A program made the translations under genes and the position numbers. Below, one piece after another: positions 17,296 through 40,636 of a DNA stretch of 42,320 bases. Origin of the DNA: Catajapyx aquilonaris (Eukaryota). The notes beneath the pieces are model-generated. The model saw only the letters and a list, made by a program, of their open reading frames with translations, was not told where the DNA came from and ran no database searches. Location of the stretch: positions 1-42,320 of the forward strand of contig JYFJ02003401.1 of NCBI GenBank assembly GCA_000934665.2, in the 5' to 3' direction. Position 1 is the stretch's first letter. Each line of letters opens with the position of its first letter.

Positions 17296-18031
17296 ATTAA
17301 TGATTAAATAAAATATATTTCTGGTGTAAATGTCAGGTTTAAATTCGAGGATTTATGGATTTGGAAGCAGAAGCATCCGTAATTTAAGCGACATTTTTCA
17401 AGGTGATTACACTGATTATTTATGGGGGTTTTCCGAGGAGAGTGAGGATCGTTTCTTCCATTGTTCCTTTTTGTTGAGGTTGTTTCCATGTAAACCTTGA
17501 TAACGTCAGAATTACCGATATTAAAATTTGAAAAATAGGTTGAAAGTGGTTAATTTTTTTGAATAATGATCTTCGCTGTTGCCGGCCTAATCTTTTTTTC
17601 GGGCAGTGCATGCACATTACATGTTCGAAAAAAACTTTTATTGTAACAGTTTAATTTCAATTGAGTGCATGGTGTCAATACATTCAGCGTACAAGTGGTC
17701 TTTGATTCGATTCAGATACCATGCCTTTATCAGAGTGATTAATAAGGCACTGCAATCTCACTCAAAATACTGCATTTGCAATAATTGAACACAACTTAAG
17801 AAAACAACACTTCCCATGAAAACAACGTAACCACTGATGGTCTCAAAAGGCATTTTAGTGACAACTCTCGACTCAAACATTCTTTATCAAGAACTCAAAC
17901 AGTTCTTACTTTTCCAATCCAAATAGGTAAATGCACAAACTGGTTACATCCGCCATCATTTTAAATATTCCCTTTCAGGCCAGGCATGTTGGGATCCGCA
18001 TTAACCAGTGGAGGATCTGCGCAATTGTTAA

Positions 18032-20336: not shown

Positions 20337-21411
20337 AGAAAAGCTATGAAGGCGACAAAGGGTGGAATCCAAGGGGGTGGAATGGTTTCCACTCCCGTGG
20401 CAAATATGAGGATATTTTTCTTCGTTATCCATCTAAAAATGAGGTACATACATAAATATTTGGGAGGATTTGGGTGAGAATCTTCCCCTGCTAGGTAAAT
20501 AGGAAGCGGTGTAGAGGTGGGCATGGTCATAATAAAGGATCTCTTCTAGGATATGTTCTTCATATCCCTCGGACCATTGAAATATTTATTGTGTACTTGC
20601 TTGCAATAACGTCAGATGAGAAACGAAACTCAGTTTTTAATGCAGATTCAGGGTTGTTTTCACTTTTTCATTGACCACATTGGAAAGAACCACTCTCAAT
20701 AAAATTTTTATGGTCAGAGAGGTCACGATTTCCTGGAAGATATCCCTGTAAAGGTGAGTTACTGAAAATGATCTTTTACCTTGTACGGCCTGCAAATAAT
20801 ATTAAGCCGGTTGGCCATTGCCCACCCCTCTTGGAGCCGCCTTCATTGGAATAAACTGGTTGAAAGACCTCTTCTAGGTCCTCTGCCGTTCGAGGCCTTT
20901 GTCACACAAGATATACTCAAAGGAGGACCCTGGGTTTTTGATAACTTCATCAAGGACACCAAGGGTCTTCAACCAATCCTTAAATCTGAAGAAAAACACT
21001 GAATGAAGATCGGAACACTGAAAATATGCACCACATTCAGGGTGCGGAAACACTTGATGAAACTGTGGGGGATGGTAGAGGTACTGTAGGTCTGTAGGAA
21101 ATAATCACTGTAAGCGTATGTGTTGTGGGTCTTTGCAGCCTTGAATCACTTTACTACTGACCAAAGTTTTGGTATGTTAAATATTATATCCTCACCATGT
21201 GTAGGTCAAGTTGTCCTGGAAAAAATTACCTGGCTGAGGAGGAGTTTTACGTCTTCCTGGAGGACGTCCTTCTCATTGCATTGGACATTCTCCAGGAGCT
21301 TTAGGCAGCACCTACACAGCCGAGTGTTGAAAAATCTTGGTGCTGGACCACCATGAACTAGTGACATCGCCACCATTTGCCCAGCATAAAAATAACAGTG
21401 CTTCTGGTAAG
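20337..21411 (-). pseudogene. G2E3-like HECT E3 ligase pseudogene fragment (exons ~21411-21230, 20985-20780, 20432-20337)
   Basis: YFYAGQMVAMSLVHGGPAPRFF; FKDWLKTLGVLDEVIKNP...ILCDK...YLQAVQ; ILIFATGVETIPP: three collinear G2E3-type HECT motifs bounded by GT-AG sites, with frameshifts. Confidence 0.8.
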
Positions 21412-21417
21412 CTGATG

Positions 21418-21745
21418 ATGCTTTGAGAGTAACAGTTGTACCAGTTGAACTTCTCCAGGTAGATGCCCCGCAGTGCGCTGCACCTGCGTCATACACATAA
21501 AATAATGAACTGGCTGTAAGTGACACTTAACCTGCTATACCCACTCACTTTTGTGTGATCACTTGCAGCGAATTCCGTGACACCAAGGTATCTTCAACAT
21601 TGAGACGCTTCAGATGAGGAAGACTCTCGGCTACTACTTTTCAGCAGCAAATCAGCATCCTCTCCATTCCAGTTCATAAAAGTAAGTGACTCCAGATGGG
21701 TCATGTTGTTCATGATCATCTGCACCGATTCCTACACAGTCAAAG
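21418..21745 (-). pseudogene. F-box/LRR fragment (3' half of exon 3, intron, first ~22 codons of exon 4)
   Basis: ESVQMIMNNMTHLESLTFMNWNGEDADLL... and CSALRGIYLEKFNW; frameshifted and lacking the F-box. Confidence 0.85.
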
Positions 21746-21757
21746 CATCTCTCTGGA

Positions 21758-21809
21758 GGACCTCAGAGGTGGAAGGCTGTGGCGCTAACCACTCCGCCAC
21801 CGTGTCGCC
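21758..21809 (-). mobile_element. tRNA-derived SINE head fragment
   Basis: Minus strand ggcgacacggtggcggagtggttagcgccacagccttccacctctgaggtcc contains an A box; same family as the 36.5-36.9 kb SINE. Confidence 0.75.
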
Positions 21810-21832
21810 ATAGGGGAGAGCCTGTCATCCCC

Positions 21833-22001
21833 AAGACCTGCTTCGTAGCTGTCCAAGACTTCAGAAGCAGCAGTCTAGGATATGAAATAATGTGGTCTGG
21901 AACTCTGCATCATGAACTACTGCCGAAAGGCCAGTTGCACGGTGGTATGGCACAAATGTTAACTAATTCCCACGCCAATGGCAACCAAGTTAAAAGGTAT
22001 C
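21833..22001 (-). repeat. Partial duplicate of the 25690-25830 intron/exon boundary of the C14orf93-like gene
   Basis: caagacctgcttcgtagc(t)gtccaagacttcagaagcagcag..ctagga.atgaaataatgtg..tctggaactctg aligns with 25689-25765 and continues to caaccaagttaaaag. Confidence 0.85.
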
Positions 22002-22659: not shown

Positions 22660-25600
22660 TCAGTGCAGGCGCACGGCCCATTCAGGTCCCCCTGGAGGTG
22701 GCGGCCTTTCCGAGGCGCCTGAGAGACGCCTTGGAACCATAAGGTCCCTTCCCCTCTTGGTTGTACACCTCTCCTCGTACAGGGCGTCCAGTTTTTTAAA
22801 CGTCCTCCTGGGTTTTTTCCGCAGCCAGGGCAGTTGTTTGACGAGGAAGATTTTTTTCCCCCTCCCTCCTTCTGCTTCCTCCACATCGCTCTCCTCACTT
22901 GACATGTAATCCTTTGTGAGGATCTGCCTAGCCTTCTTCCTGTCTTCTGCTGCTGCCAGGTGCTGGAGAGCAGTAAGCCTTCTTTCCAACTTCTGAAACA
23001 TACAATTATGTAAATTAGAGAGACAAACTATAGAGCCTATACCTTCGGAAAAAATTGCATAGACTATCTTTTTATCTTAGTGTACAGTAGGCCCTACATG
23101 TATGGATACATCTATAAATTAGCTATAATTAATTTTACAAATTAATTTTATTGCATTACACGTCATTCCCACTCGTGAGCACGCACAGGTTAATGATCCT
23201 TGTTGCGACTGAAAACCTTGCCCTTGTGGAGCTCAATTCACACTAATAATGTTCCAGTTCTTTCTATGACGCATGAAATACATAAAGACATGTTTTCTTA
23301 CCTCTAAAATCCTCGCATTTCGTTTGGATTTGAGGCTATATGCCTCAAATGTCCCCTTTTCCTTGCTCCTCTCCCGCCTGACCAGGGTTTTGTAGTAAGT
23401 TCGTACTGCTTCTGCAAGGAATAATAATATTACTGATAAGAATCAGGGACTTGCCATATAAATTGCACAATTACTGATATGTCTTCACTAAGTAATTCGC
23501 CTAAGCAGGTTAACATCGCTTTGACTAGTTATCATGGTTGATTGCGCAGTTCATATTATGTTATAATCACTTAATTTTGAACTAAAAATATTACACAGTC
23601 CAGAACAGAGGGGCCGTCAAAGAAGCGACGGATGGGGTCCCCCGGGGACAGCAAGGAGGAAGGGGATGCTGCGAGACGGGACGGGACGGGAGAGTTGGGG
23701 AAGATCAAAAAACGGCTGGGTGCGAGAGGTGAAGCGTGAAGGAGAAGGTGAACGAGATGGAGCAGAGGTGGTCAGGGAAGACGACCGAGCTTGAAAGGGA
23801 GGTGAGGCAGCTGAGGAAAGAGACGGAGGAGATGCGGTGGGAGAGGGAGGCCACGTGAAAGAAACTGATTGAATTGGAGGACCAATAACATCTGATGTTA
23901 TACAAAGACCACTCCTGATTTACTAGATTATGATTACATCTGGTGCACCGACAAAGTGGGCACTTGGTCAGGGGAGACGGAGTGGCGCCGCGGTAACGCG
24001 CGCGCCCACGGATGTTAAGGTCCCGGGTTCGATCCCAGCCCGGGGACACCCCCTTCATCTCGTGCAGAGGTCGGTCACCTCTGGCTTCGTCTCGGGTGGT
24101 ATTTCCTACAGACTAAACCACCCGGGGGAGCTCACTAAAAATGGCCACACGTCAGATGCACTGCACTTGCACATCCCCTCCTGTCATCCTGCCCGTGGGC
24201 CCGGGCGATACGTATAAAGGCTCCAATGTATACAACAAATAAAGGTCCATGTGATAAACCCTGATAGGGTGAAAGCATTACCCAAACAATTATTATTATT
24301 AAAATTAAGTGGGCACTTGGTGACCAACTGTAGAGAAACAGATTTACACCTGGTTAGTTGGTATAATAGACCACAGATAGGGTAATAACTTATACTGATT
24401 ATTACTTCTAATTTCATCCACTGTCCATATATTAGCGGGATCTTCAGTGACTCGAACCTCCTTGATCATTCTTCTGGAAAACTCCAGATTTCTTGGGTGT
24501 GTGAAGCTGAAAAATAAAAAATTACTGTAATACTTCAGAAATAAAGATACACACTCTTTGTCGTCAAATATTTTCTATCAGGTACAGTCTTTGAGATATG
24601 AATTTGTTGTAATTAATCTCCTGATGTATAACATCTCCATCATATCATTTATCCAGAGATTCATGCCTAGGCTGCGTTAAACATTTTTTTCAAAGCTACA
24701 GTAGCTATTCTCACCAATGTCCAAAATCGAAGAGGACTTCTCTGTTCTCTTGCAGCGCCTTGTATACTCGATGGACTGCTTGCTGAAAAGAGGAATAAAC
24801 GAAAACCTGAGTGAAAAACTTGACTGAAGATCCAATCAGCACACTTAGAGTGAAACCCGCCAATGTCACCCAATTGTTGGACAGCGAATGTGATCTGCTG
24901 CTTCTTTGCGGCACAATATTGGCGTGCAGGGTGCCAATGTTTCTGTCTAGGTTTCATTGTTGTAATGTTATCCAGCACGGCAAGTTAACAATGATCCTCA
25001 CATTACTTACATGGATTAGGTTCCTCTTCCTCACCCTTCTCCTCGAGGAATGAGCCATGTCACGTGATGCTTCCTCAGCTGCTGACTCGCCTCCCTCACT
25101 CGCCATTGGTGCACCCTTATCCGCAGTTGGTGAAGCAGTAGTCTGTGGGTGTGAATCAATGTAGGAAAAATTTTCCCATCGTAAATTGCTGCTTAGGCCA
25201 CATGCGTACATGTTCACAAAATGATTTAAAATACTGTCACAACAATGGCATTGGATACAGCCATGAGAAATACTTCCAAGGCAAGGTATCTGCACCTTCC
25301 ACTCCATGCAGGGGTGAGAATATATGAAGGGGCGAGACAAGAAGGTGAGGATTGGAAAGAAGTGTTAGTGAGAACTCAGAAGTGACTCGTACTTCCTCTA
25401 AAAATTACGCCCTGTTACATCACTGAGCCAAACATACCTTTCCATTTTCCTTCTTCTTCTTCTTCCCCTTCACGGCAACAGAGGCATCATCATTTGAGCG
25501 ACGAGGTGGAATATATTCTTCCTCCGAGTCAGAAATGGACTGATAACTGCAATCTGCGTCCTTGTAGGCAGGAGCCTTGTAGTTCCCTTTCCCCCCCATA

Positions 25601-28472
25601 ATGTAACTACATACAGATGCTCCTTCTCTCCTTGTAATAATTTTGTTCGGACCACTTGCCCGCTCGATTGATGTATCTGCTGCAGTGGCAAGACCTGCTT
25701 CGTAGCAGTCCAAGACTTCAGAAGCAGCAGCCTAGGAAATGAAATAATGTGTCTGGAACTCTGGATCATAAACTACTGCAAAAGGCCCAGCGGTATGGCA
25801 CCCACACAACCAAGTTAAAAGATATCAGTTATCAGAATGTTTCATGTGCAAGATATCCACCCACTAGACTAGAGAATTAAGAAAGCATCCAATATGTTGC
25901 CGGAAAGTTACTCACAGTAGCTTCTCTGGTCACCCTTTCACTTCGGACTCTTGCTGGTTCACGTGAGGGGCTACTTAACACTGAAGGTGCCTGATTATCC
26001 TCTGCTCGCCCTCCATCATCTGAGACTCCAACTCCACCAATCTGGGATAATAAGTAAAATAATGTGGCACAAAAAACACACTAAATGCGCAAAGGGTCAT
26101 TATTCCTTAAAAAGGGGGAACAAGTCCCATTTGTTCCTTACCATATTATTTACAGCAGGATCTTTCCCCCTCTTTCCCCTTCTCTTTGAGCCACTGGCTG
26201 AGCCGCATGGAGAGCCATTTGCTTCCCATTCCAAGATTTCAGTTGCAGTGATCTAGAATACGAAACAATAATTAAATTGGCATAAGATCACAAGTTATTG
26301 AGACATGACGAATTTTCCCTGCTAATTTTGGAACACCATCTATCATAGCTGTGCAGTGCCTTTCAAACTTTGTTGTTGATGATTAGCAACACTGCACATG
26401 TTTACTTGTTCCCCCCCCCCCCTCTCATTACACTTCAAAATTACGGCAGATTTAACATAATCTCAAGTACATGGAACCTATACAGGGTGAAGGGAAACTC
26501 GCAGTTGGTGCCTAAACTTCCAGAATAGAGGGGTGTCCGACTTCCAGCTAATGTGCCCATACATATTGATAGGCTTTTCCACGGTTCCAGAAAAATTGTC
26601 CAACAACAGGAGTTTTACATTATTAGTTTTGCGAGTACTATAAGTGTACCTGGTGATTGTACGCAAGTTTCCCTTCACCATGTATGTACCACAAGGATTG
26701 ACACAGCTGCACATCCATTGCCAACCAAATTACATCAAAAGCATTTCACCTGCATAGTAGAGTTTAAATTGATTCCAAGTTCAGGTTGAGGATCTCCCTC
26801 AGTTCGTTCGGCGACTCCATCTGCATCTTCACACTGGACGTCTCCCTCACCTGAAAGATCATCATGAGTGTTTTCTTGTACATCTGTATACACAATGTAA
26901 TCAATTTGTATTTTTCTAAAATTAAGGTGTATTAGTTCAACAAGGGTGCAAACAGTGACATTCCAAAAAATATACGCAAACGTGTCAGTCATTAGGCACT
27001 GTAATGGCTCCAATAAAAAATTTCTGATTATATCATGTTACCACACCACAACTTCAATATGCAGTACTTCTACTGTTCGTGGTGGTGGGGTTTGCGTTTC
27101 TCCCATGACCCCAAGAGCTATACCGGCGGTAGCTTCGTCTACTGGTAGGGCCACCCAAGCCGGACAGGTCTTTGGGATAGGAGACAGACTAAGAGAGATG
27201 CCAGTCTTTCCTCTCTTCTTTTTCCTCTTCGTTTCTCCCTCCATCTGTCCCACCTTTGCTTCTTCTTACAGCCAGATAGCCACAGTTGCTTTGGCTTCTT
27301 CCAAATAAACCAACTAAACCAAACTTCTACTGTACTAATATCAAACAATAGTTCTAGGTTCAACAAAATACATGGTAAAAAGAATTGAAAAATAGCACAG
27401 CTTGACTTGCTCAATGCGGCTCAGACTCAGCAGATGTGCATCTGTGTGTGTGCCACATTATCAGTTAGGCAAGTGATACTAATCACAGAAACAGTGTAAT
27501 TAAAAAGGCCCATATTAGCTAACAATCACAATGCAATGCATGATATGCCTGCATTGAAATACTCTGAACATGAGAGCCAATGTTCTGCTCAAAGTGCCTG
27601 GCACACTACGAATGACACTGACTGTGAGCAGTTCGGTATTTCTCACTCACCAAGCCTTTCATTGATAAATACATAATAATGCATAAAGACATACTTGCGC
27701 TTGAAGAACTTCCATTTGGAGGGTCGTTGTAGCCAATCAGAGCAATAATTTCTCTGATATTCTCTGCAGTCTGAGCCTCCAAATTTTGTGTCTGATATTC
27801 CTGTAGGATGTGGAAAAACATGATGAATTCCTCGAATCATGGTATGATGGCATAATCTCCTACATATGAGTAATGTTCTCCTATTGTAATGCTCTTTGCT
27901 CTGATAAACATATGATAAACAGTGCAGCAATGTTGAAACCCAAACAACATTAATTAATGCATTTCCATTGAAACATAAGTGACAGATTTTGAGTACCTAG
28001 CCTCTGAGCCATCATGAACCAGTTCCATCGACATTTCAGTTGAACTCTCCAGCAGCACTACAGTTATCCCAAGCACCCCACATATTTCATGACCGGCTTC
28101 TCCACTAGTTAACCTTACCCATCTGCCCTGCACTCCTTCCATCCCGATCATCATCTGCTCCACCTTGAACTGGTCCGCTTCAACTTTGACAGCCGTGGTA
28201 AGCCCACCAGGTTCACTTTCAGCAAGGCCAGTCGTAATACATTGGTCTGACGGATGGTGGTTGGGAACCGCATCAGTAGCTAACAAAGGAAAACATTTCA
28301 AGTCACACACATGACGCTTTCTCATTGGGTCCATATACTACTCACGCTGATGATTCCTGATGAGCCACTCTTCCAGCATGCCCATGACCCCGTCCCACTT
28401 GTCCCAACGAGCAAAGAAGCCCTCCAAACAGCCCCTGACTGATCTCAGCAGCTCCCTGTCCTCAGAGTCCAT
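22660..28472 (-). CDS. C14orf93/DUF4616-like protein, ~600 aa, 12 coding exons: 28472-28346, 28279-28119, 27800-27695, 26883-26750, 26252-26142, 26041-25916, 25731-25438, 25142-25011, 24782-24715, 24506-24406, 23411-23302, 22992-22660
   Basis: All introns GT-AG; phases chain to 1803 nt without a stop. The C-terminus AVRTYYKTL..R..R...YMSSEES..VKQLPW....F..LD....R...S.RPPP..P.WA resembles the C14orf93-family domain; the N-terminal half is low-complexity. The 5' exons are less certain than the 3' ones. Confidence 0.7.
23600..23886 (+). mobile_element. LINE ORF1 coiled-coil fragment in intron
   Basis: VKEKVNEMEQRWSGKTTELEREVRQLRKETEEMRWEREAT*KKLIELEDQ resembles the heptads before the LEDxSRR motif of LINE ORF1; contains stops. 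Confidence 0.5.
23969..24306 (+). mobile_element. Full-length tRNA-derived SINE with 15-bp TSD
   Basis: A box tggcgccgcggt, B box ggttcgatcc, (att)n tail; TSD aagtgggcacttggt at 23954-23968 and 24307-24321. Confidence 0.92.
27072..27203 (+). mobile_element. RTE-clade retrotransposon 5'-UTR-derived fragment
   Basis: cgtggtggtggggtttgcgt...atgacc..agagctat...gtagggccacccaagccggacaggtc matches the conserved 5' UTR of RTE/BovB/Expander-type elements. Confidence 0.7.
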
Positions 28473-28667
28473 GGCTTGAATATCCTGTTATGTGGACACC
28501 CCCCTTTCCTTTTATCCCCACGCTTCCCTCCAACCTGTCCTCGGTGCTCCTCCTGGACTCCCTGAATCCAATGGACGGAATGGTACCCGTTTCCCACGAA
28601 AATGTGTCGCCTAAACGCTCTTCAAGTCATCTCAAACCTGACCATCAAAAAAAATGTGCGAAAAGTC

Positions 28668-28971
28668 CCATTGTCGGCGGCCATCTTTGATTAATCTTCC
28701 ACACCGTTGCCAGATTGCGCCAATTCGAACTAACGGGACAGTAACGGACAGAGTAAAAAGCAGATCAAACACGTTGTGTAATACAACAGCATTTGCTGTG
28801 TACATTACATTAATTAATTGCTCGTTAGATTAGCACTATAATAATAATTATTGAAGAATGTTGCGTCCGGATTTTTTGAGTGACTTGTCCCGTGGTTGCA
28901 TCCGAATATGAGCAGAAGGAACGGACCGGAAGCGGCGGTCGGAACGCACCCAAGATGGCCGCCGACAATGG
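28668..28971. promoter_or_regulatory. Promoter cassette upstream of the C14orf93-like gene, with a perfect 20-bp terminal inverted repeat
   Basis: ccattgtcggcggccatctt (28668-28687) and aagatggccgccgacaatgg (28952-28971) flank the same core as in the F-box copies. Confidence 0.8.
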
Positions 28972-29220
28972 AAGTGCTCCAATTTTGAAATCTGAACCTT
29001 TTTATTCTTACTTTTCCAATCCAAAAATAGGTTAATGAGCAAACTGGTTACATACGCCATAATTTTAAATATTCCCTTTCAAGCCATGGGATCCACATTA
29101 ACCAGTGGCGGATCTGCACAATATTCGTACACCCTGAAGAAGCGCATACTTGTCTGCTCGTCCAAAGCAGGGATGAATTGTATGATGCGACATTGTGATT
29201 GCAAAGACTGGTGGCTTGAA

Positions 29221-30262
29221 TTACGGATATGTGGAAATTTGCAGGGTGCTGCTTGCCGCCTGCAACTCACCCAGGGCCTCAGCTGACTGGTCCAGGTTGT
29301 CGCACCAGAAGAGCTTCAGCTGCTGGAGGTTGCGGCATCTCCTCACCAGGTCTAGGAGCGGGCCGTTGGTGACCTCATTACATCTCCACAAACAGAAGTG
29401 AGTCAGGAGAGGGCAGTTGGCAGAAATGGCCGATATGCAACCATTGTCCAGAGTTGAGCAATAAGAGAGGTCGAGCTTCTCAAGGCTACCCACAATGTTC
29501 GGAATGGAGAAAAACCTCTGCAACCTTGTGCAGTGCAGGTGTCACACCTAACCAGGGTCAAGCTACGGAGGTTGCGCAGTCTCCCGATCTCATCTTGCTT
29601 CTACTTGACAATCTTGTTTGCTGCCTCCCTTCGTTTCGGCTGCACAAGCCAAGCAGGATTCCTCCTCGTCACGAATCACTGAATCGGCCGCTGATTTTCC
29701 CGGCGTCTTGTCCAGCACCTCCGAGGCACCCAACCCACCAGCAATCTGAAACAAAATGAGTGTAAAAGATGGTCGCACATGTAATCATGCGGTCGTGTAA
29801 AAATGAATGCGACAGTTCCGTGCATAATGATAGGCTGATGGTCAGCACCGGTGCAGTCACTCCAAAGCCATGCAGATGACACCAACAAGAATATCCTTTC
29901 TTTTTTTCACCTTTCTCCTTGGCTTCTCCTCCAGTTCCATGCACAACTCAACCCTCTTCCTCTTCATGGCCCTCGTCTCCACAGTGTTCTGACCCTTCTC
30001 CTCGGAAGAAACCAACCGCTGGCCCCCGAGAGTGCGGGCCAACACTTCTACTGGCCTGTGGGTGTTGCCTACGAGAAACAACAACTCGGGGAGCCTTGGC
30101 CAGTTTCTCCCAGTGACCTCGTTCGATGGCGGGGGGAACGCAACCTCAGATCATTAATGCTGGTTATCTTTTCCAAGTTCTTGGCAGGAACTCAAAATTT
30201 CCAAGGGATGCTTTAAGTAATTGTAGTACCAGTTGAACCTTTTCCCGCAGTCTTCTGTACCT
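29221..30262 (-). pseudogene. Scrambled F-box/LRR pseudogene(s)
   Basis: Minus-strand order: exon-4 start (30260-30010), exon-1 end (~30005-29911), intron, exon 2 (29745-29591) fused directly to the last LRRs (29590-29221). Exon 3 and the F-box are missing. Confidence 0.85.
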
Positions 30263-34195: not shown

Positions 34196-36537
34196 TACAT
34201 CGGCATGAAAATTATGGCTATGGTCTAAGGTTATAGCAGGGGAACGCAGGCTCAAAATTTTTCGGGATGCATAAACTGTTTCCTGCAGCAGCCGGTGGCC
34301 AGACCGGGAACCTCCCACAAACCACCCCCTCAGGAGGGCTACGTCACCGCGTGCAATCACTCCGGTAGCATGCGCGCAGGCTTCTACCAGCATAGAGGTC
34401 CAGGCGGCCAACTTTGTTTGGCTTGGAGAACAAGCTCCTCAGAGGTTGTAACATGCACCAGCGAAACTTTGCCAGGGTCAGGCTACGGAGGTTGTGCAGT
34501 CTTCCGATCCCATTCTGAAGGTGAGTGTCAGTCAAGATGGTACAGTCTTGGATATTCAGCTCCTCCAGCAGTGGGAAGCGTGCGAGGAGAAGGAAGGACT
34601 TCGGGTTGACGAAGCAATTAAACGTCAGCTTACTCAGCCGCCTCCCCACGCTGCGGGCCAAAACTTCTACTTCCTTGTCAGCATTGTCCATGAGAAGCGA
34701 CACGCTGGTGAGATTCGGCCAGTTTTGCCTAGTGAACTTGCTTGATGGCGGAGGGAAACTTCCAACACCTATGGTTATCTCTTCTAGCTCCTGGCAGGAA
34801 CTCAAAATGTCCAAGGGATGCTTTGAGTAAACGTCTTTCCAGTTGAACATACTCAGGCAGATGCTCCTCAGTGCACTGCACCTGTGTCGTAAAAATAAAA
34901 GTAATGAACTGGCCATAAGTGACACTTAACTTGCCTCCTTTACTTACTCCTGTACGATCAGTTCCAGCATATTCTGTGCCACATTGGTATCCTGAACACT
35001 GAGACGCTTCAGGTGAGGAAGCTTCTCCGCTACTACCTCCAGCAGCGAATCAACCTTCGCTCTCTGCCAGTCCGTCAGAGTAAGTGACTCCAGATGGGTC
35101 ATGTTGTCCACGATCACCTGCACTGATTCCTCCAGAGTCAGAAGGTGGGCATCCAAGACCATCTTCTTCCTGAGACCCAGCCACTCCTTGGCCACCCTGG
35201 ACCAATCTTGGCAAACCAGTGTGGTCATATGGATGGTTTCCTCCTCCAGGTACGAGAACACCTTTGCCTTCATCTCATCGGGCAGGTTGGCAAATGTCTT
35301 GGCGCTAGCCTGCAATTGTCAAGAAAATGCTCAAGTATGCAAACAAGTATTGCATAAGCCCTGATCATTTTAAGTACATGTGTCGTGCGTCTCTGCTGCC
35401 CAATTACCGAGATAATTAGCTCATCGTCATCCTGCACTCACTGTTGCTTCTCCTTTACAATGTTGGCTGCTATCTCCATTCGCCTTGGCTGCAAGCGACA
35501 CACAAAACTGCTTCTCGTCACTGATCTTGGCATCGGCCACTGATTTTCCCGCCATCTGCGCCTGCACCCCCGAGACACCCATGCCACCAGCAATCTGAAA
35601 CAAAATGAAACCGTAACAAACCAAACTCAGGATTGCATCTGCACATACACAAAACAAGTGACAACAAAGGACCACTTTATCATGTATTAATTTAAATTAA
35701 CCCATAGTTTAAGCAATTATTACTTTTTCTCATTGAAAAAAAGGCTCATGGAACGGCCCTGTCCATCTGTGTGTGGACAGGTATCAGGGCCTGAACAGCA
35801 TAAGATAGCGACAAACATTTTTTGGATTCAGCTGACCCTAAATTAGGTTTCATGGACAACATCCTGTGCCCGGCCACATCCGATTTTACTGAGCCCACTC
35901 CATCCACCAAGGTCAAGTCTACATGCTTTAGGCCAGTATCTTCGACGTCTCATGCAAACCTTGCGACGGCCCCGGGTCCGCCCTAGCTAGCTCATACCAA
36001 GCAAACTCGGGGTTCCTGGAGCACTGGTTTTTATTGACCTTCTGGGTCCCAAGCTGCTTGAGTACAGACTGGCCCTTGTTAGGTCTCCCCTCCATCGGAG
36101 CCCCCGCAAGCGGCTATCAGCGATTATGTCACCCTGGAATCAACTGACCTGGCATGGCAGAGAGGAATCTTATGGCCTCGCTCTGGACATTTGACCCCAG
36201 GCATGGGTGGCACTTTAAGTTAACCGCCCCCGCCTACGTGGCCAAATCCGGCGTACAGCCCATTGACACCTTGCCTGCCCACCTTGCGGTCCTCAAAACC
36301 AGGACAACGACGCTGCCGAATTGGCACGCCAAAATAAACCTCGGCTGCTCCATCAACCGACACCACGTCTTGAACCCCAGTAGTAGTTAATTTTGTTACT
36401 TAAAAATGTGATACTCTCCCTGGCAGAACCCTGTCAACTCCCTTCTGCGAGCGCCTCCCGCAGGTTTGCGAGAGATGAAGATTACGGCCTTAGAGGTTGC
36501 TGGGCAACGAGAAATGAGGCTGACAACACTCTACGTC

Positions 36538-37027: not shown

Positions 37028-37777
37028 AATCTATAGCATTAAAGTGCTTGCGGTGTGTGCGTATAAGCCATCTGATTGGGCCACCGCATATTGTTACCGC
37101 CACCTCCCCATTGGCCCGCCATCGTGTGCCACGGGGGTGTAAACAACTCCTGGGTCGCCGGCGATACTGTCCATTCCTTTCTCTGTATTGTTGCCCGGTC
37201 GGCACTACTGTGAAGTTGCGAATAGTGTCGTTGGTCTCAGCGGGTCGTGCAGATACAGGAAGTAATGTTCAGAGACCTTTTAATGTAAATTTGGTATTTT
37301 TATTTTTTCAAATTAATTTTTGATTAATTTTCACCTTTCTCCATGGCTTCTCCTCTTCCTCCTTCACCCCCCTGCAGCTGCCCATGCCCTCCTCCTTCAT
37401 CCTCTTCGTGGTGGCCCGTGTCTCATCCACAGTGTTCCAACCCTCCTCCTCCTCCTCCTGGGCTTCTCTCTTCATCTTTCCAGTCTCCATCATCATCCAG
37501 TGCTGTCCTCCAAACAATCAAAGCCGCAACCGAATTGTACGGGGCTCCCCGAAAGAATAAAAAAATTAAAAATCAAGATAAATATTTTCGGCGTGGCGTC
37601 CCTTCCCGAAATTCCCGAACAACATGTTGCCAGGTTCACTATTTCGAACGGACGTAAACCAGACATGTTATTTTTAATACGAATGTATTTTTTTCTACTT
37701 TTACATATTATAATATTAGCCCGTTGCTCATTTTTTACATCATTAGTAAAATTATTATTTAAAAATAAGAATGCTCT

Positions 37778-37870
37778 CGGCTGCGTCCGGATTTGGAGTG
37801 ACGTCCCTGGTTGCGTCCGAATAGAAGTAACAGAAGGAACGGACTGGGAGCGACGGCCGGAACGCACCCA
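37778..37870. promoter_or_regulatory. Promoter cassette core (copy 10)
   Basis: gctgcgtccggatttggagtgacgt..gttgcgtccgaat..ggaacggactgg..ggaacgcaccc; both YY1-like arms degenerate. Confidence 0.65.
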
Positions 37871-38040
37871 CGTACATCGATAAGTGATTATCGAGCTGTA
37901 ATCGACTTTAATTATCAATTTACTGCTCATTATTGCCGCGAATTATCGCAGGAGAGGTTACATGAGGCAGTGACGCGCCTGTCAGATACCTCATGCGAGT
38001 GATTGTGAATAAATAAAACAATGAGGCTCACTCTCTTTAA

Positions 38041-38909: not shown

Positions 38910-40636
38910 CTATGAAATGACGTAGACGTGATCGATGCGTGGCTCGAAGGAGGGAAATGCGAAGATTTGAAGAGTGCTGCTGGCAGCCTGCAACTTATCG
39001 AGGGCCTCCGCACTCCGGTCCAGGTGCCAGCACCAGATGAGCTCAAGGCGCTGGAGTTTGCGGCATCTCCTCACCAGCTTCAAGAGCGAGGCATTGGTGA
39101 CCCCATGGGTGTGCACCAAGCGGAAACGAGTCAGAAGAGGGCACTTCGCAGCAATGGCTGATATGCAACTGTCGTCAAGAGCTGAGCAATATGAAAGGCT
39201 GAGCATCTTGAGGCTACCCACAACAAGTGGCTGGTAGAAAAACCTCCCCAAATCCCATGCACAGCAGGTGACATTTTCCAGGGTCAAGCTACGAAGGTTG
39301 CGCAGTCTCCCAATCCCACCGCGCAGTTCCCTTTCTGTCAAGGAGTAACAGGTTTGGAGTTTCAGCTCCTCCAACTGAGGGAAGCATGCGAGGAGAAGGA
39401 AGGACTCTGGCATGTTAAAGGAATGGATGTGGAGCTTCCTCAGCTGGCTCCCCAGGCTGCGGGCAAGCACCTCCACTTCCCTGTCAGCACCGTTTATGAC
39501 AAGCGACACGTCTGTGAGTTTCGGACAGTTTATCCCAGTGGCCCAACTCAATAATCTATGAGGCATTTGGCCAGCTATGGTTATTTTCTCCAGTTCCCGA
39601 AACGAATTCAAAATGTCCAGGGGATGCCTGTAGTGCCAGTTCCAGCTTCTCAGGCGGAAGTCCCGGAGTTTGCTGCACCTGCATTGTAAGAACAAAATGA
39701 TGAACTGTGACACTCGATGCCCTATTTCCACCAAAACTTTTTTACTTACTTTTGTGCAATCCGTTCCAGCATATTCTGTGACACCGCAGTATCATAAATA
39801 ATGAGACACTCGAGAAGAGGAAGATTCTCAGCTACTACTTGCAGCAGGGAATCAGCATTTGTTTCATTCCAGTTCTTCAAGGCAACTGACTCCAGATGGG
39901 ACATGTTGCTCGTGATCATCTGCACAGATTCTTCCAGAGTCAAACGCTGGCTGTTCAAGGTCAGCTTCTTCCTAAGACCCAGCAACTCCCTGGCCACCCT
40001 GCACCAATCCTTGCAAACCAGTACGACACTCGTACGAAGGGTATTCTCCTCCAGGTATGAGAACACCTTTGCCTTCATCTCGTCTGGCAGGTTGGAAAAG
40101 GTCGTGACTTTAGCCTGTAATTGTCAAGATATTGCTTAAGTATGTACACAAGTAATGATCATATTAAGTACAGGTACTGTGTGTCTCTGGAGCACAGTAA
40201 CCGAGATAACTAGCTCATTGTCAACCCACACTCACCTTCGCTTCTGCTTGACAATGTTGGTTGCAGCCTCCCGCAATCTTGGCCTCACAAGTCACAAGGG
40301 TCTGCTTCTCATCATCATGAATCTTGGAATCGGCCCCTGATTGTCCCAGTGTCTTTGTCTGCACCTCCGAGACATCCAACCCACCAGCAATCTTAAACAA
40401 AATAAAAGAGTTGTAACTGTAAGAAACACATGCAATCATGCAATCATGTAAAAATTAACACGATAGTTCCAGGCGAAAGATTGACTGACGGTCAGGACTG
40501 GTGCGGTCACCTAAAAGCCATACAGATGACACCTACACAGGCGTCTACACAAATATTTATTGTATTTTTCACCTTTCTCCTGGGCTTCTCCAGAACCTCA
40601 TTCTCTTCGTGGCCCTTGTTTCAACAGTGTTCCAAC
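38910..40636 (-). pseudogene. F-box/LRR copy 11, 5'-truncated; exons 40391-40236, 40114-39750, 39678-38910 open; exon-1 remnant 40636-40573
   Basis: Exons 2-4 intact. Exon 1 lacks its METR start, ends in phase 2 relative to WNTVETRATKR, and no promoter cassette lies upstream. Confidence 0.7.

Follow-up and report, generated by a model that had tools for sequence, protein, structure and literature searches.

How did a gene that resembles none of its neighbours come to stand in a tandem array of F-box genes, behind the sequence that appears to be their promoter? The question is raised by contig JYFJ02003401.1 of Catajapyx aquilonaris (assembly GCA_000934665.2), of which we analysed positions 1 to 42,320 of the forward strand; this whole stretch of 42,320 nucleotides (nt) is referred to below as the window. 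Along its minus strand runs a tandem array that repeats about every 2.6-3.5 kb; the units contain an F-box exon (PF12937, E=4.9e-10), after which come exons that are leucine-rich-repeat (LRR)-like by eye and give no Pfam LRR match at E<=0.01. The embedded gene lies on the same strand and would fill one slot of this array. The reading that we favour, tentatively, is that it is a real and probably functional gene for a protein of 589 amino acids (aa), and that array rearrangement brought it behind the front of an F-box unit in an act of promoter capture.

The anatomy of the ordinary units provides the background for this reading. Seven F-box exons were found by motif in the window, and a profile of six unit front halves located pieces of units at 12 further places, with nine copies in all of a promoter cassette of about 300 bp. 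In an intact unit the cassette is continuous with exon 1, with no intron between them, and from the second of two conserved boxes it is about 95 nt down to the start codon; exon 2 is 135-156 nt long and of phase 0-0, and exon 3 holds the F-box. With their F-box and LRR-like exons the neighbours correspond to FBXL-type F-box/LRR tandem arrays, whereas the embedded gene has no F-box-family or LRR match in any exon (Pfam) and shares the cassette with them.

The twelve-exon chain and its C-terminal domain

Chaining by splice sites and phase gives a gene of 12 coding exons, read on the minus strand from an ATG at 28472 to a stop at 22660 (Table 1). All 11 introns are GT-AG, phases are compatible along the whole chain, each of the 11 acceptors has a strong pyrimidine tract, and an in-frame stop lies shortly 5' of the first ATG. 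This is evidently the 12-exon reading frame of roughly 600 aa proposed in a first-pass annotation of the same DNA, which is borne out as an open chain. A variant with 13 coding exons and 623 aa is likewise open; it aligns more poorly to relatives, against which it leaves a 34-residue gap at one exon's end plus a 46-nt exon. The 12-exon form takes an earlier, weak donor at 24406 and skips the small exon, and with exon 10 so shortened the bit scores to relatives rise (for example from 72.8 to 87.8), the gaps fall from 51 to 17, and 16 alignments cross the exon 10/11 junction as against 4 in the 13-exon form. We consider the gene to be probably real and functional, and to encode a protein of 589 aa.

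The firmest part of the chain is its 3' end. In a phmmer search of 1.84 billion representatives the last exon alone matched 196 proteins at E<=0.001, the best at 1.4e-14, and the chained protein aligns to longer relatives from residue ~385 to its end (385-587, at up to 87.8 bits), with the homology beginning at residue ~372-388 and spanning four exon junctions. Because the alignment runs on from ~385 to the end of the chained protein, the last four exons, and in part the fifth from the end, form one confirmed coding unit. In an alignment of 32 sequences that includes the last exon of the window (alignment A2), this exon keeps all four invariant columns, and eight further columns are nearly invariant.

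The C-terminal ~200 aa, encoded by exons 9-12, are a compact alpha/beta domain of an unnamed metazoan family. The family is scattered, often with many copies per genome, among sponges, cnidarians, flatworms, a brachiopod and an echinoderm, and its named members are uncharacterized proteins of Lingula, Patiria, Actinia, Actinostola, Acropora, Montipora, Macrostomum and Ephydatia. Lingula anatina LOC106175311 (XP_013412708.1) and Actinia tenebrosa LOC116294229 share the ~200-aa domain with the gene, and 'uncharacterized proteins' of Acropora and Montipora and hypothetical proteins of Ephydatia muelleri and Macrostomum lignano belong to the same family; aligned over its full length, the domain is 28-38% identical. 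Most relatives are short (~100-320 aa) or fused to other things, and none has the 385-aa N-terminal part of the gene product. Transposon-type domains are present in three of 86 relatives, of which one has a DDE endonuclease, another a reverse transcriptase and the third a zinc knuckle; this hints that the domain may derive from a mobile element.

An AlphaFold2 model of the Lingula relative, based on the 32-row alignment, consists over the domain of helices and a small sheet and has a pLDDT (predicted local distance difference test) score of 83.5 overall and above 90 over the domain. Foldseek found nothing for the domain in the PDB at E<=0.001, the best Z in a wide VIA-align search, for a helical piece of 69 residues, was 7.0, which is within its stated noise, and a PDB sequence search with the family profile returned nothing under E=0.35. 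The locus brings to light a widespread metazoan domain family with a confidently predicted fold for which neither a Pfam model nor a solved structure, nor any clear neighbour in fold, turned up in searches of Pfam, the PDB, Foldseek and VIA-align. A word-index protein search with the last exon among longer proteins gave no match, which is weak evidence.

The N-terminal ~385 aa are lineage-specific and largely of low complexity, with basic clusters. These clusters, together with acidic serine patches, suggest a nuclear protein. Exon 1 has a match to the Pfam spectrin repeat (E=3e-4) that remains below threshold, at 20.9 bits against a cut-off of 35.

The label C14orf93/DUF4616-like, which the first-pass annotation had attached to the gene and for which it had pointed to the last exons, finds no support in Pfam. 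With hmmscan no PF15394 row was obtained for the last exons or for any other of the 12 exons scanned singly (E<=1 or <=10), a result that does not extend to the joined protein and that assumes the presence of PF15394 in our copy of the library, which was not verified; nor was there a match in 150 relatives (E<=0.001) or in 86 further ones, 236 in all. Only one ESM Atlas cluster close to the last exon (rank 11, score 0.95), with PF15394 on 12% of its members, connects the gene to this model, and no named C14orf93 protein was returned by any of the protein searches made. The gene product and C14orf93 (RTFC; mouse 4931414P19Rik) are similar in overall size, and both have basic clusters of the nuclear-localization type, the mouse homologue being described with two predicted bipartite nuclear signals and, within its first 17 residues, a predicted signal peptide (PMC10163356). 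Unlike that homologue, the gene product opens, as read by eye, with an acidic, hydrophilic stretch. We therefore do not class the gene as a C14orf93, given the missing PF15394 match and the different N-terminus; a remote relation may exist.

The shared cassette and the likeness of exon 6

The claim of the same annotation that the gene sits behind the cassette of the F-box genes is well founded. One of the nine copies in the window lies directly 5' of the first coding exon, in the same orientation as the gene, and matches the F-box unit profile with an nhmmer E of 1.7e-55 over model positions 19-396; within it, 28662-28969 matches eight other loci at 67-84% identity by blastn, and the nine aligned copies have 52 invariant columns (alignment A1). 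Standard inter-unit sequence continues directly above it, 29005-29122 being 85.6% identical to 17903-18025. Unit homology stops near 28640, leaving about 150 nt between its end and the start codon, which places the join in the 5' untranslated region (5'UTR); the start codon itself is ~196 nt below the second box, compared with the ~95 nt of the F-box units. As far as can be read from the DNA, promoter sharing is real here, with one presumptive promoter block serving unrelated coding bodies, and the gene is most likely transcribed from its copy of the array's cassette. In itself the case is an ordinary-looking one of promoter sharing.

The cassette of the gene is 57-65% identical to those of the F-box units, while deep F-box cassette lineages are 56-70% identical to one another. 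In an unrooted and weakly resolved cassette tree it groups weakly (75/80) with three F-box cassettes and forms the longest end branch (0.40). The 20-nt inverted repeat formed by its two boxes is perfect in this copy only, and no clean target duplication was seen by eye, both of which speak against a mobile cassette of the miniature inverted-repeat transposable element (MITE) type. The core of the boxes resembles what we take to be a YY1 site. An ATG in the second box opens a 20-codon frame (28684-28622) that ends before the start of the gene and would constitute an upstream open reading frame (ORF) if the transcript starts above it. Between deep F-box lineages the median identity is 74-83% for exons, 69-73% for introns and 61% for cassettes; that cassettes should be less alike than introns may reflect gene conversion within transcribed sequence or a fast turnover of the cassette spacer.

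A second likeness concerns exon 6, which the first-pass annotation had compared with F-box exon 2. Its phase (0-0, as in F-box exon 2) and its borders stand as described there, the acceptors align base for base and the borders are in register; the likeness of sequence is weak. DNA profiles of F-box exon 2 built from five or seven copies with 30-nt flanks match exon 6 on the right strand (E=0.0039 and 0.0031, covering 26053-25978 and 26052-25990), and the whole-unit profile matches 26069-25910 at E=0.0016 on a 9.2-kb target, or ~0.007 when scaled to the whole window. Exon 6 is the best non-family site of the real window, at 11.2 bits against 4.0 and 3.9 for the next two, and in a shuffle test none of 200 block-wise dinucleotide-shuffled windows reached this score (best 10.2). 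With single-sequence blastn from exon 6, two ends of F-box exon 2 are among the top three non-self matches (E=0.26 and 0.9). Set against these results, an exon-only profile of F-box exon 2 does not match exon 6, one with wider flanks finds nothing at E<=10, and a protein profile of seven F-box exon 2 copies reaches only E=30 (1.3 bits) among 1357 ORFs of the window; the failure at the protein level follows from the profile alignment, which needs indels that are not multiples of three. Global identity between exon 6 and F-box exon 2 is 44-51%, compared with 70-81% among the F-box exon 2 copies themselves. We regard real homology as having about an even chance on this sequence evidence. Two further points had been offered for it: the F-box peptide that had been quoted for comparison is a composite, as no single copy has all three of its pieces, and the start of the next exon with GCT, said to be that of most F-box exon 3s, is seen in four of seven F-box exon 3 starts and carries no weight.

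From these two likenesses it had been proposed that promoter and leader exon form one portable expression module. The promoter is indeed shared, and exon 6, as the sixth coding exon, is no leader. Some 2.6 kb and five unrelated coding exons separate it from the cassette upstream, whereas F-box exon 2 directly follows the cassette-continuous exon 1, and by the unit profile F-box exon 1 has no likeness to any of the gene's exons 1-5. As the cassette is alike at the level of F-box units and exon 6 far less so, the two need not have moved together. The likeness of exon 6 lies below even that of F-box introns: if introns represent the neutral level, exon 6 is too diverged for the age of the cassette and the two patches moved separately, whereas if gene conversion keeps the bodies of the F-box genes alike, it is the divergence of the cassettes that shows the real age, and exon 6 could be just as old. 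Its likeness to F-box exon 2 is probably a separate and older trace rather than part of one promoter-plus-leader module.

How the gene came to its place

Traces of rearrangement are found just below the gene. There a 122-bp templated duplicate of the intron/exon 7 junction, in which the pseudo-exon runs into a stop (read by eye), adjoins a short piece of a tRNA-like repeat, beyond which comes a fragment of F-box exon 3. The fragment is 84% identical to exon 3 of one unit (family D14), so it looks younger than the likeness of exon 6, and cassette, exon 6 and fragment are collinear as they would be in one F-box unit. The presence of both the fragment and the duplicate at this place shows rearrangement between the gene and F-box units. 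Pieces of the tRNA-like, or short interspersed element (SINE)-like, repeat occur at 23960-24140 in an intron of the gene and at 21750-21832 at the duplicate junction, and ARAGORN identifies no tRNA gene in them. Below the F-box fragment, 21206-21526 is an open frame of 106 codons on the minus strand with no Pfam match.

In the reading that we favour, the body of the gene would have come behind the front end of an F-box unit through DNA rearrangement within the array, with the capture join in the 5'UTR at the point where unit homology ceases, and transcription from the cassette of that slot would lead to co-expression with the F-box genes. The relatives of the domain, which are short, have no N-terminus of this kind and include the three proteins with transposon-type domains, are what a captured domain would lead one to expect. 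Capture is also favoured by the cassette tree, where the copy of the gene falls, if weakly, within a single cassette clade instead of standing outside them all.

Several results weigh against this reading, most of them concerning the 5' exons. The first 386 residues have no match among the 236 relatives (best E=0.39), an ESM Atlas search with exon 7 gave no usable match, and even the closest relative of the last exon among the representatives searched is only 46% identical. In a codon-usage test the model frame is best in only seven of 13 exon pieces, exons 3-6 scoring intron-like and exons 1, 7 and 8 best in the model frame, in a test trained on F-box/LRR exons, a leucine-rich set ill-suited to acidic, glycine- or serine-rich exons. 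An exon chainer that maximizes length obtained 2248 nt on the strand of the gene, compared with 1052, 1583 and 1650 nt in its controls (the opposite strand and two reversed sequences), and it picked partly different exon ends. The chain beats the controls, and its exact 5' structure is not unique, since other open chains were found. Finally, the cassette tree cannot be rooted and so leaves room for transfer in the opposite direction.

In that opposite case the gene would be an old resident from which the founder of the F-box array borrowed the promoter, perhaps together with a copy of exon 6, and around which the array expanded afterwards. A split older than the array is what the low identity of exon 6 relative to that among F-box exon 2 copies would lead one to expect, and the long end branch of the gene's cassette, its weak attachment to a clade and the in-register DNA match of exon 6 (E ~0.003) also fit. 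We nevertheless think this unlikely: the cassette of the gene is no more distant from the others than deep F-box lineages are from one another, F-box exon 1 is unlike any of exons 1-5, and the C-terminal domain belongs to a family that looks typically captured and multi-copy.

Doubtful to a similar degree is the view that only the 3' part is real, a gene of ~200-270 aa formed by exons 8 or 9 to 12, with the chain upstream unused and the cassette not its promoter. The usual length of the relatives, the residue at which homology sets in, in-frame ATG codons in exon 8, the intron-like scores of exons 3-6 and the ease with which alternative chains are built would all be accounted for. Such a gene would leave without explanation the strong pyrimidine tracts of 11 acceptors and the matching phases through the whole chain, the good scores of exons 1, 7 and 8, and a first ATG that has an in-frame stop just upstream and occupies the position of the F-box start codon behind the cassette.

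It is more improbable still that the likeness of exon 6 is due to chance and the locus a silent by-product of rearrangement, an unexpressed or decaying copy that happens to be open, for while the failed protein, exon-only and wide-flank profiles and the broken F-box copies in neighbouring slots would agree with this, the twelve exons have no stop or frameshift, all family-invariant residues are kept and exon 6 leads the other non-family sites by 7 bits.

Promoter capture of the kind that we favour has partial precedents in the fusion of host genes with transposases, where domains are captured by exon shuffling (Cosby et al., bioRxiv 10.1101/2020.05.07.082677), and in transposable-element domains captured by F-box genes (bioRxiv 10.1101/2024.12.17.628972). 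As in those reported cases, a foreign domain of a multi-copy type has come to stand behind the front part of a gene family of the host; unlike them, only the promoter and ~50 nt of 5'UTR are clearly shared here, and the front of the gene carries no in-frame fusion to a coding exon of the family. Should transcription start from the cassette, the locus would be a clean case in nature of two unrelated protein families, placed next to each other, that are served by one promoter block, and it would point to array rearrangement as a regular way for new or foreign coding bodies to gain expression. A bolder extension, which we hold to be unlikely on present evidence, is that the 300-bp cassette, bounded by an inverted pair of 20-nt boxes, serves as a reusable promoter unit and has been put before unrelated genes on more than one occasion in this animal, in the present case before one with a domain of mobile-element type, that exon 6 records an older exchange of a coding exon with the founder of the F-box array, and that arrays in this genome act as nurseries in which foreign coding bodies acquire expression.

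Coordinates and neighbouring features

Table 1. Positions of the embedded gene, its cassette and the adjoining rearrangement traces in the window
Feature	Position	Strand	Remarks
Promoter cassette common to F-box units	28640..29010	-	Probable promoter and start of 5'UTR of embedded gene
Upstream inverted-repeat arm	28952..28971		Pair I1; perfect 20 nt, 100% complementary
Downstream inverted-repeat arm	28668..28687		264 nt between arms; contains ATG
Coding exon 1	28346..28472	-	Start codon 28472-28470
Coding exon 2	28119..28279	-	Alternative, later donor possible
Coding exon 3	27695..27800	-	Coding signal weak
Coding exon 4	26750..26850	-	Coding signal weak; alternative acceptor at 26915 possible
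Coding exon 5	26142..26252	-	Phase 0-0
Coding exon 6	25916..26041	-	Phase 0-0; likened to F-box exon 2
Coding exon 7	25438..25731	-	First 43 nt and 70 nt of preceding intron duplicated at 21832-21953
Coding exon 8	25011..25142	-	One relative (P0026) aligns from residue 372, within this exon
Coding exon 9	24715..24782	-	Conserved C-terminal domain begins here
Coding exon 10, short form	24406..24506	-	Weak donor
Exon 10, long form	to 24350	-	Then requires extra exon 24282-24327
Coding exon 11	23302..23411	-	From chained model and alignment to relatives
Coding exon 12	22660..22992	-	Holds stop codon; most conserved part
Direct duplicate of intron/exon 7 junction (25801-25689)	21832..21953	-	122 bp, ~92% identical; dead pseudo-exon
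F-box exon 3 fragment, 3' part only	21543..21745	-	nhmmer E=2.3e-53; repeat families D14, D15

Several of the surrounding units are themselves incomplete or altered. Just upstream of the gene, at 29589-30005, is a broken F-box copy in which exons 1 and 2 are present and exon 2 runs straight into repeat-exon sequence, so that the F-box exon is deleted. A cassette with exon 1 at 37324-37872 is separated by 1.7 kb from exons 2 and 3 (34941-35620) of what is seemingly the same unit, suggesting a large insertion in intron 1, and the front half of a unit at 39743-40636 has no detectable cassette. A word-index protein search with F-box exon 3 among longer proteins, like that with the last exon of the gene, found no match, again weak evidence. 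An intron of the embedded gene contains, on the plus strand and beside the tRNA-like repeat piece, a short, charged, coiled-coil-like open frame (23733-23858). Towards the other end of the window, 851-1221 is a tandem array of about 20 copies of a purine-rich 18-nt unit (repeat family D11).

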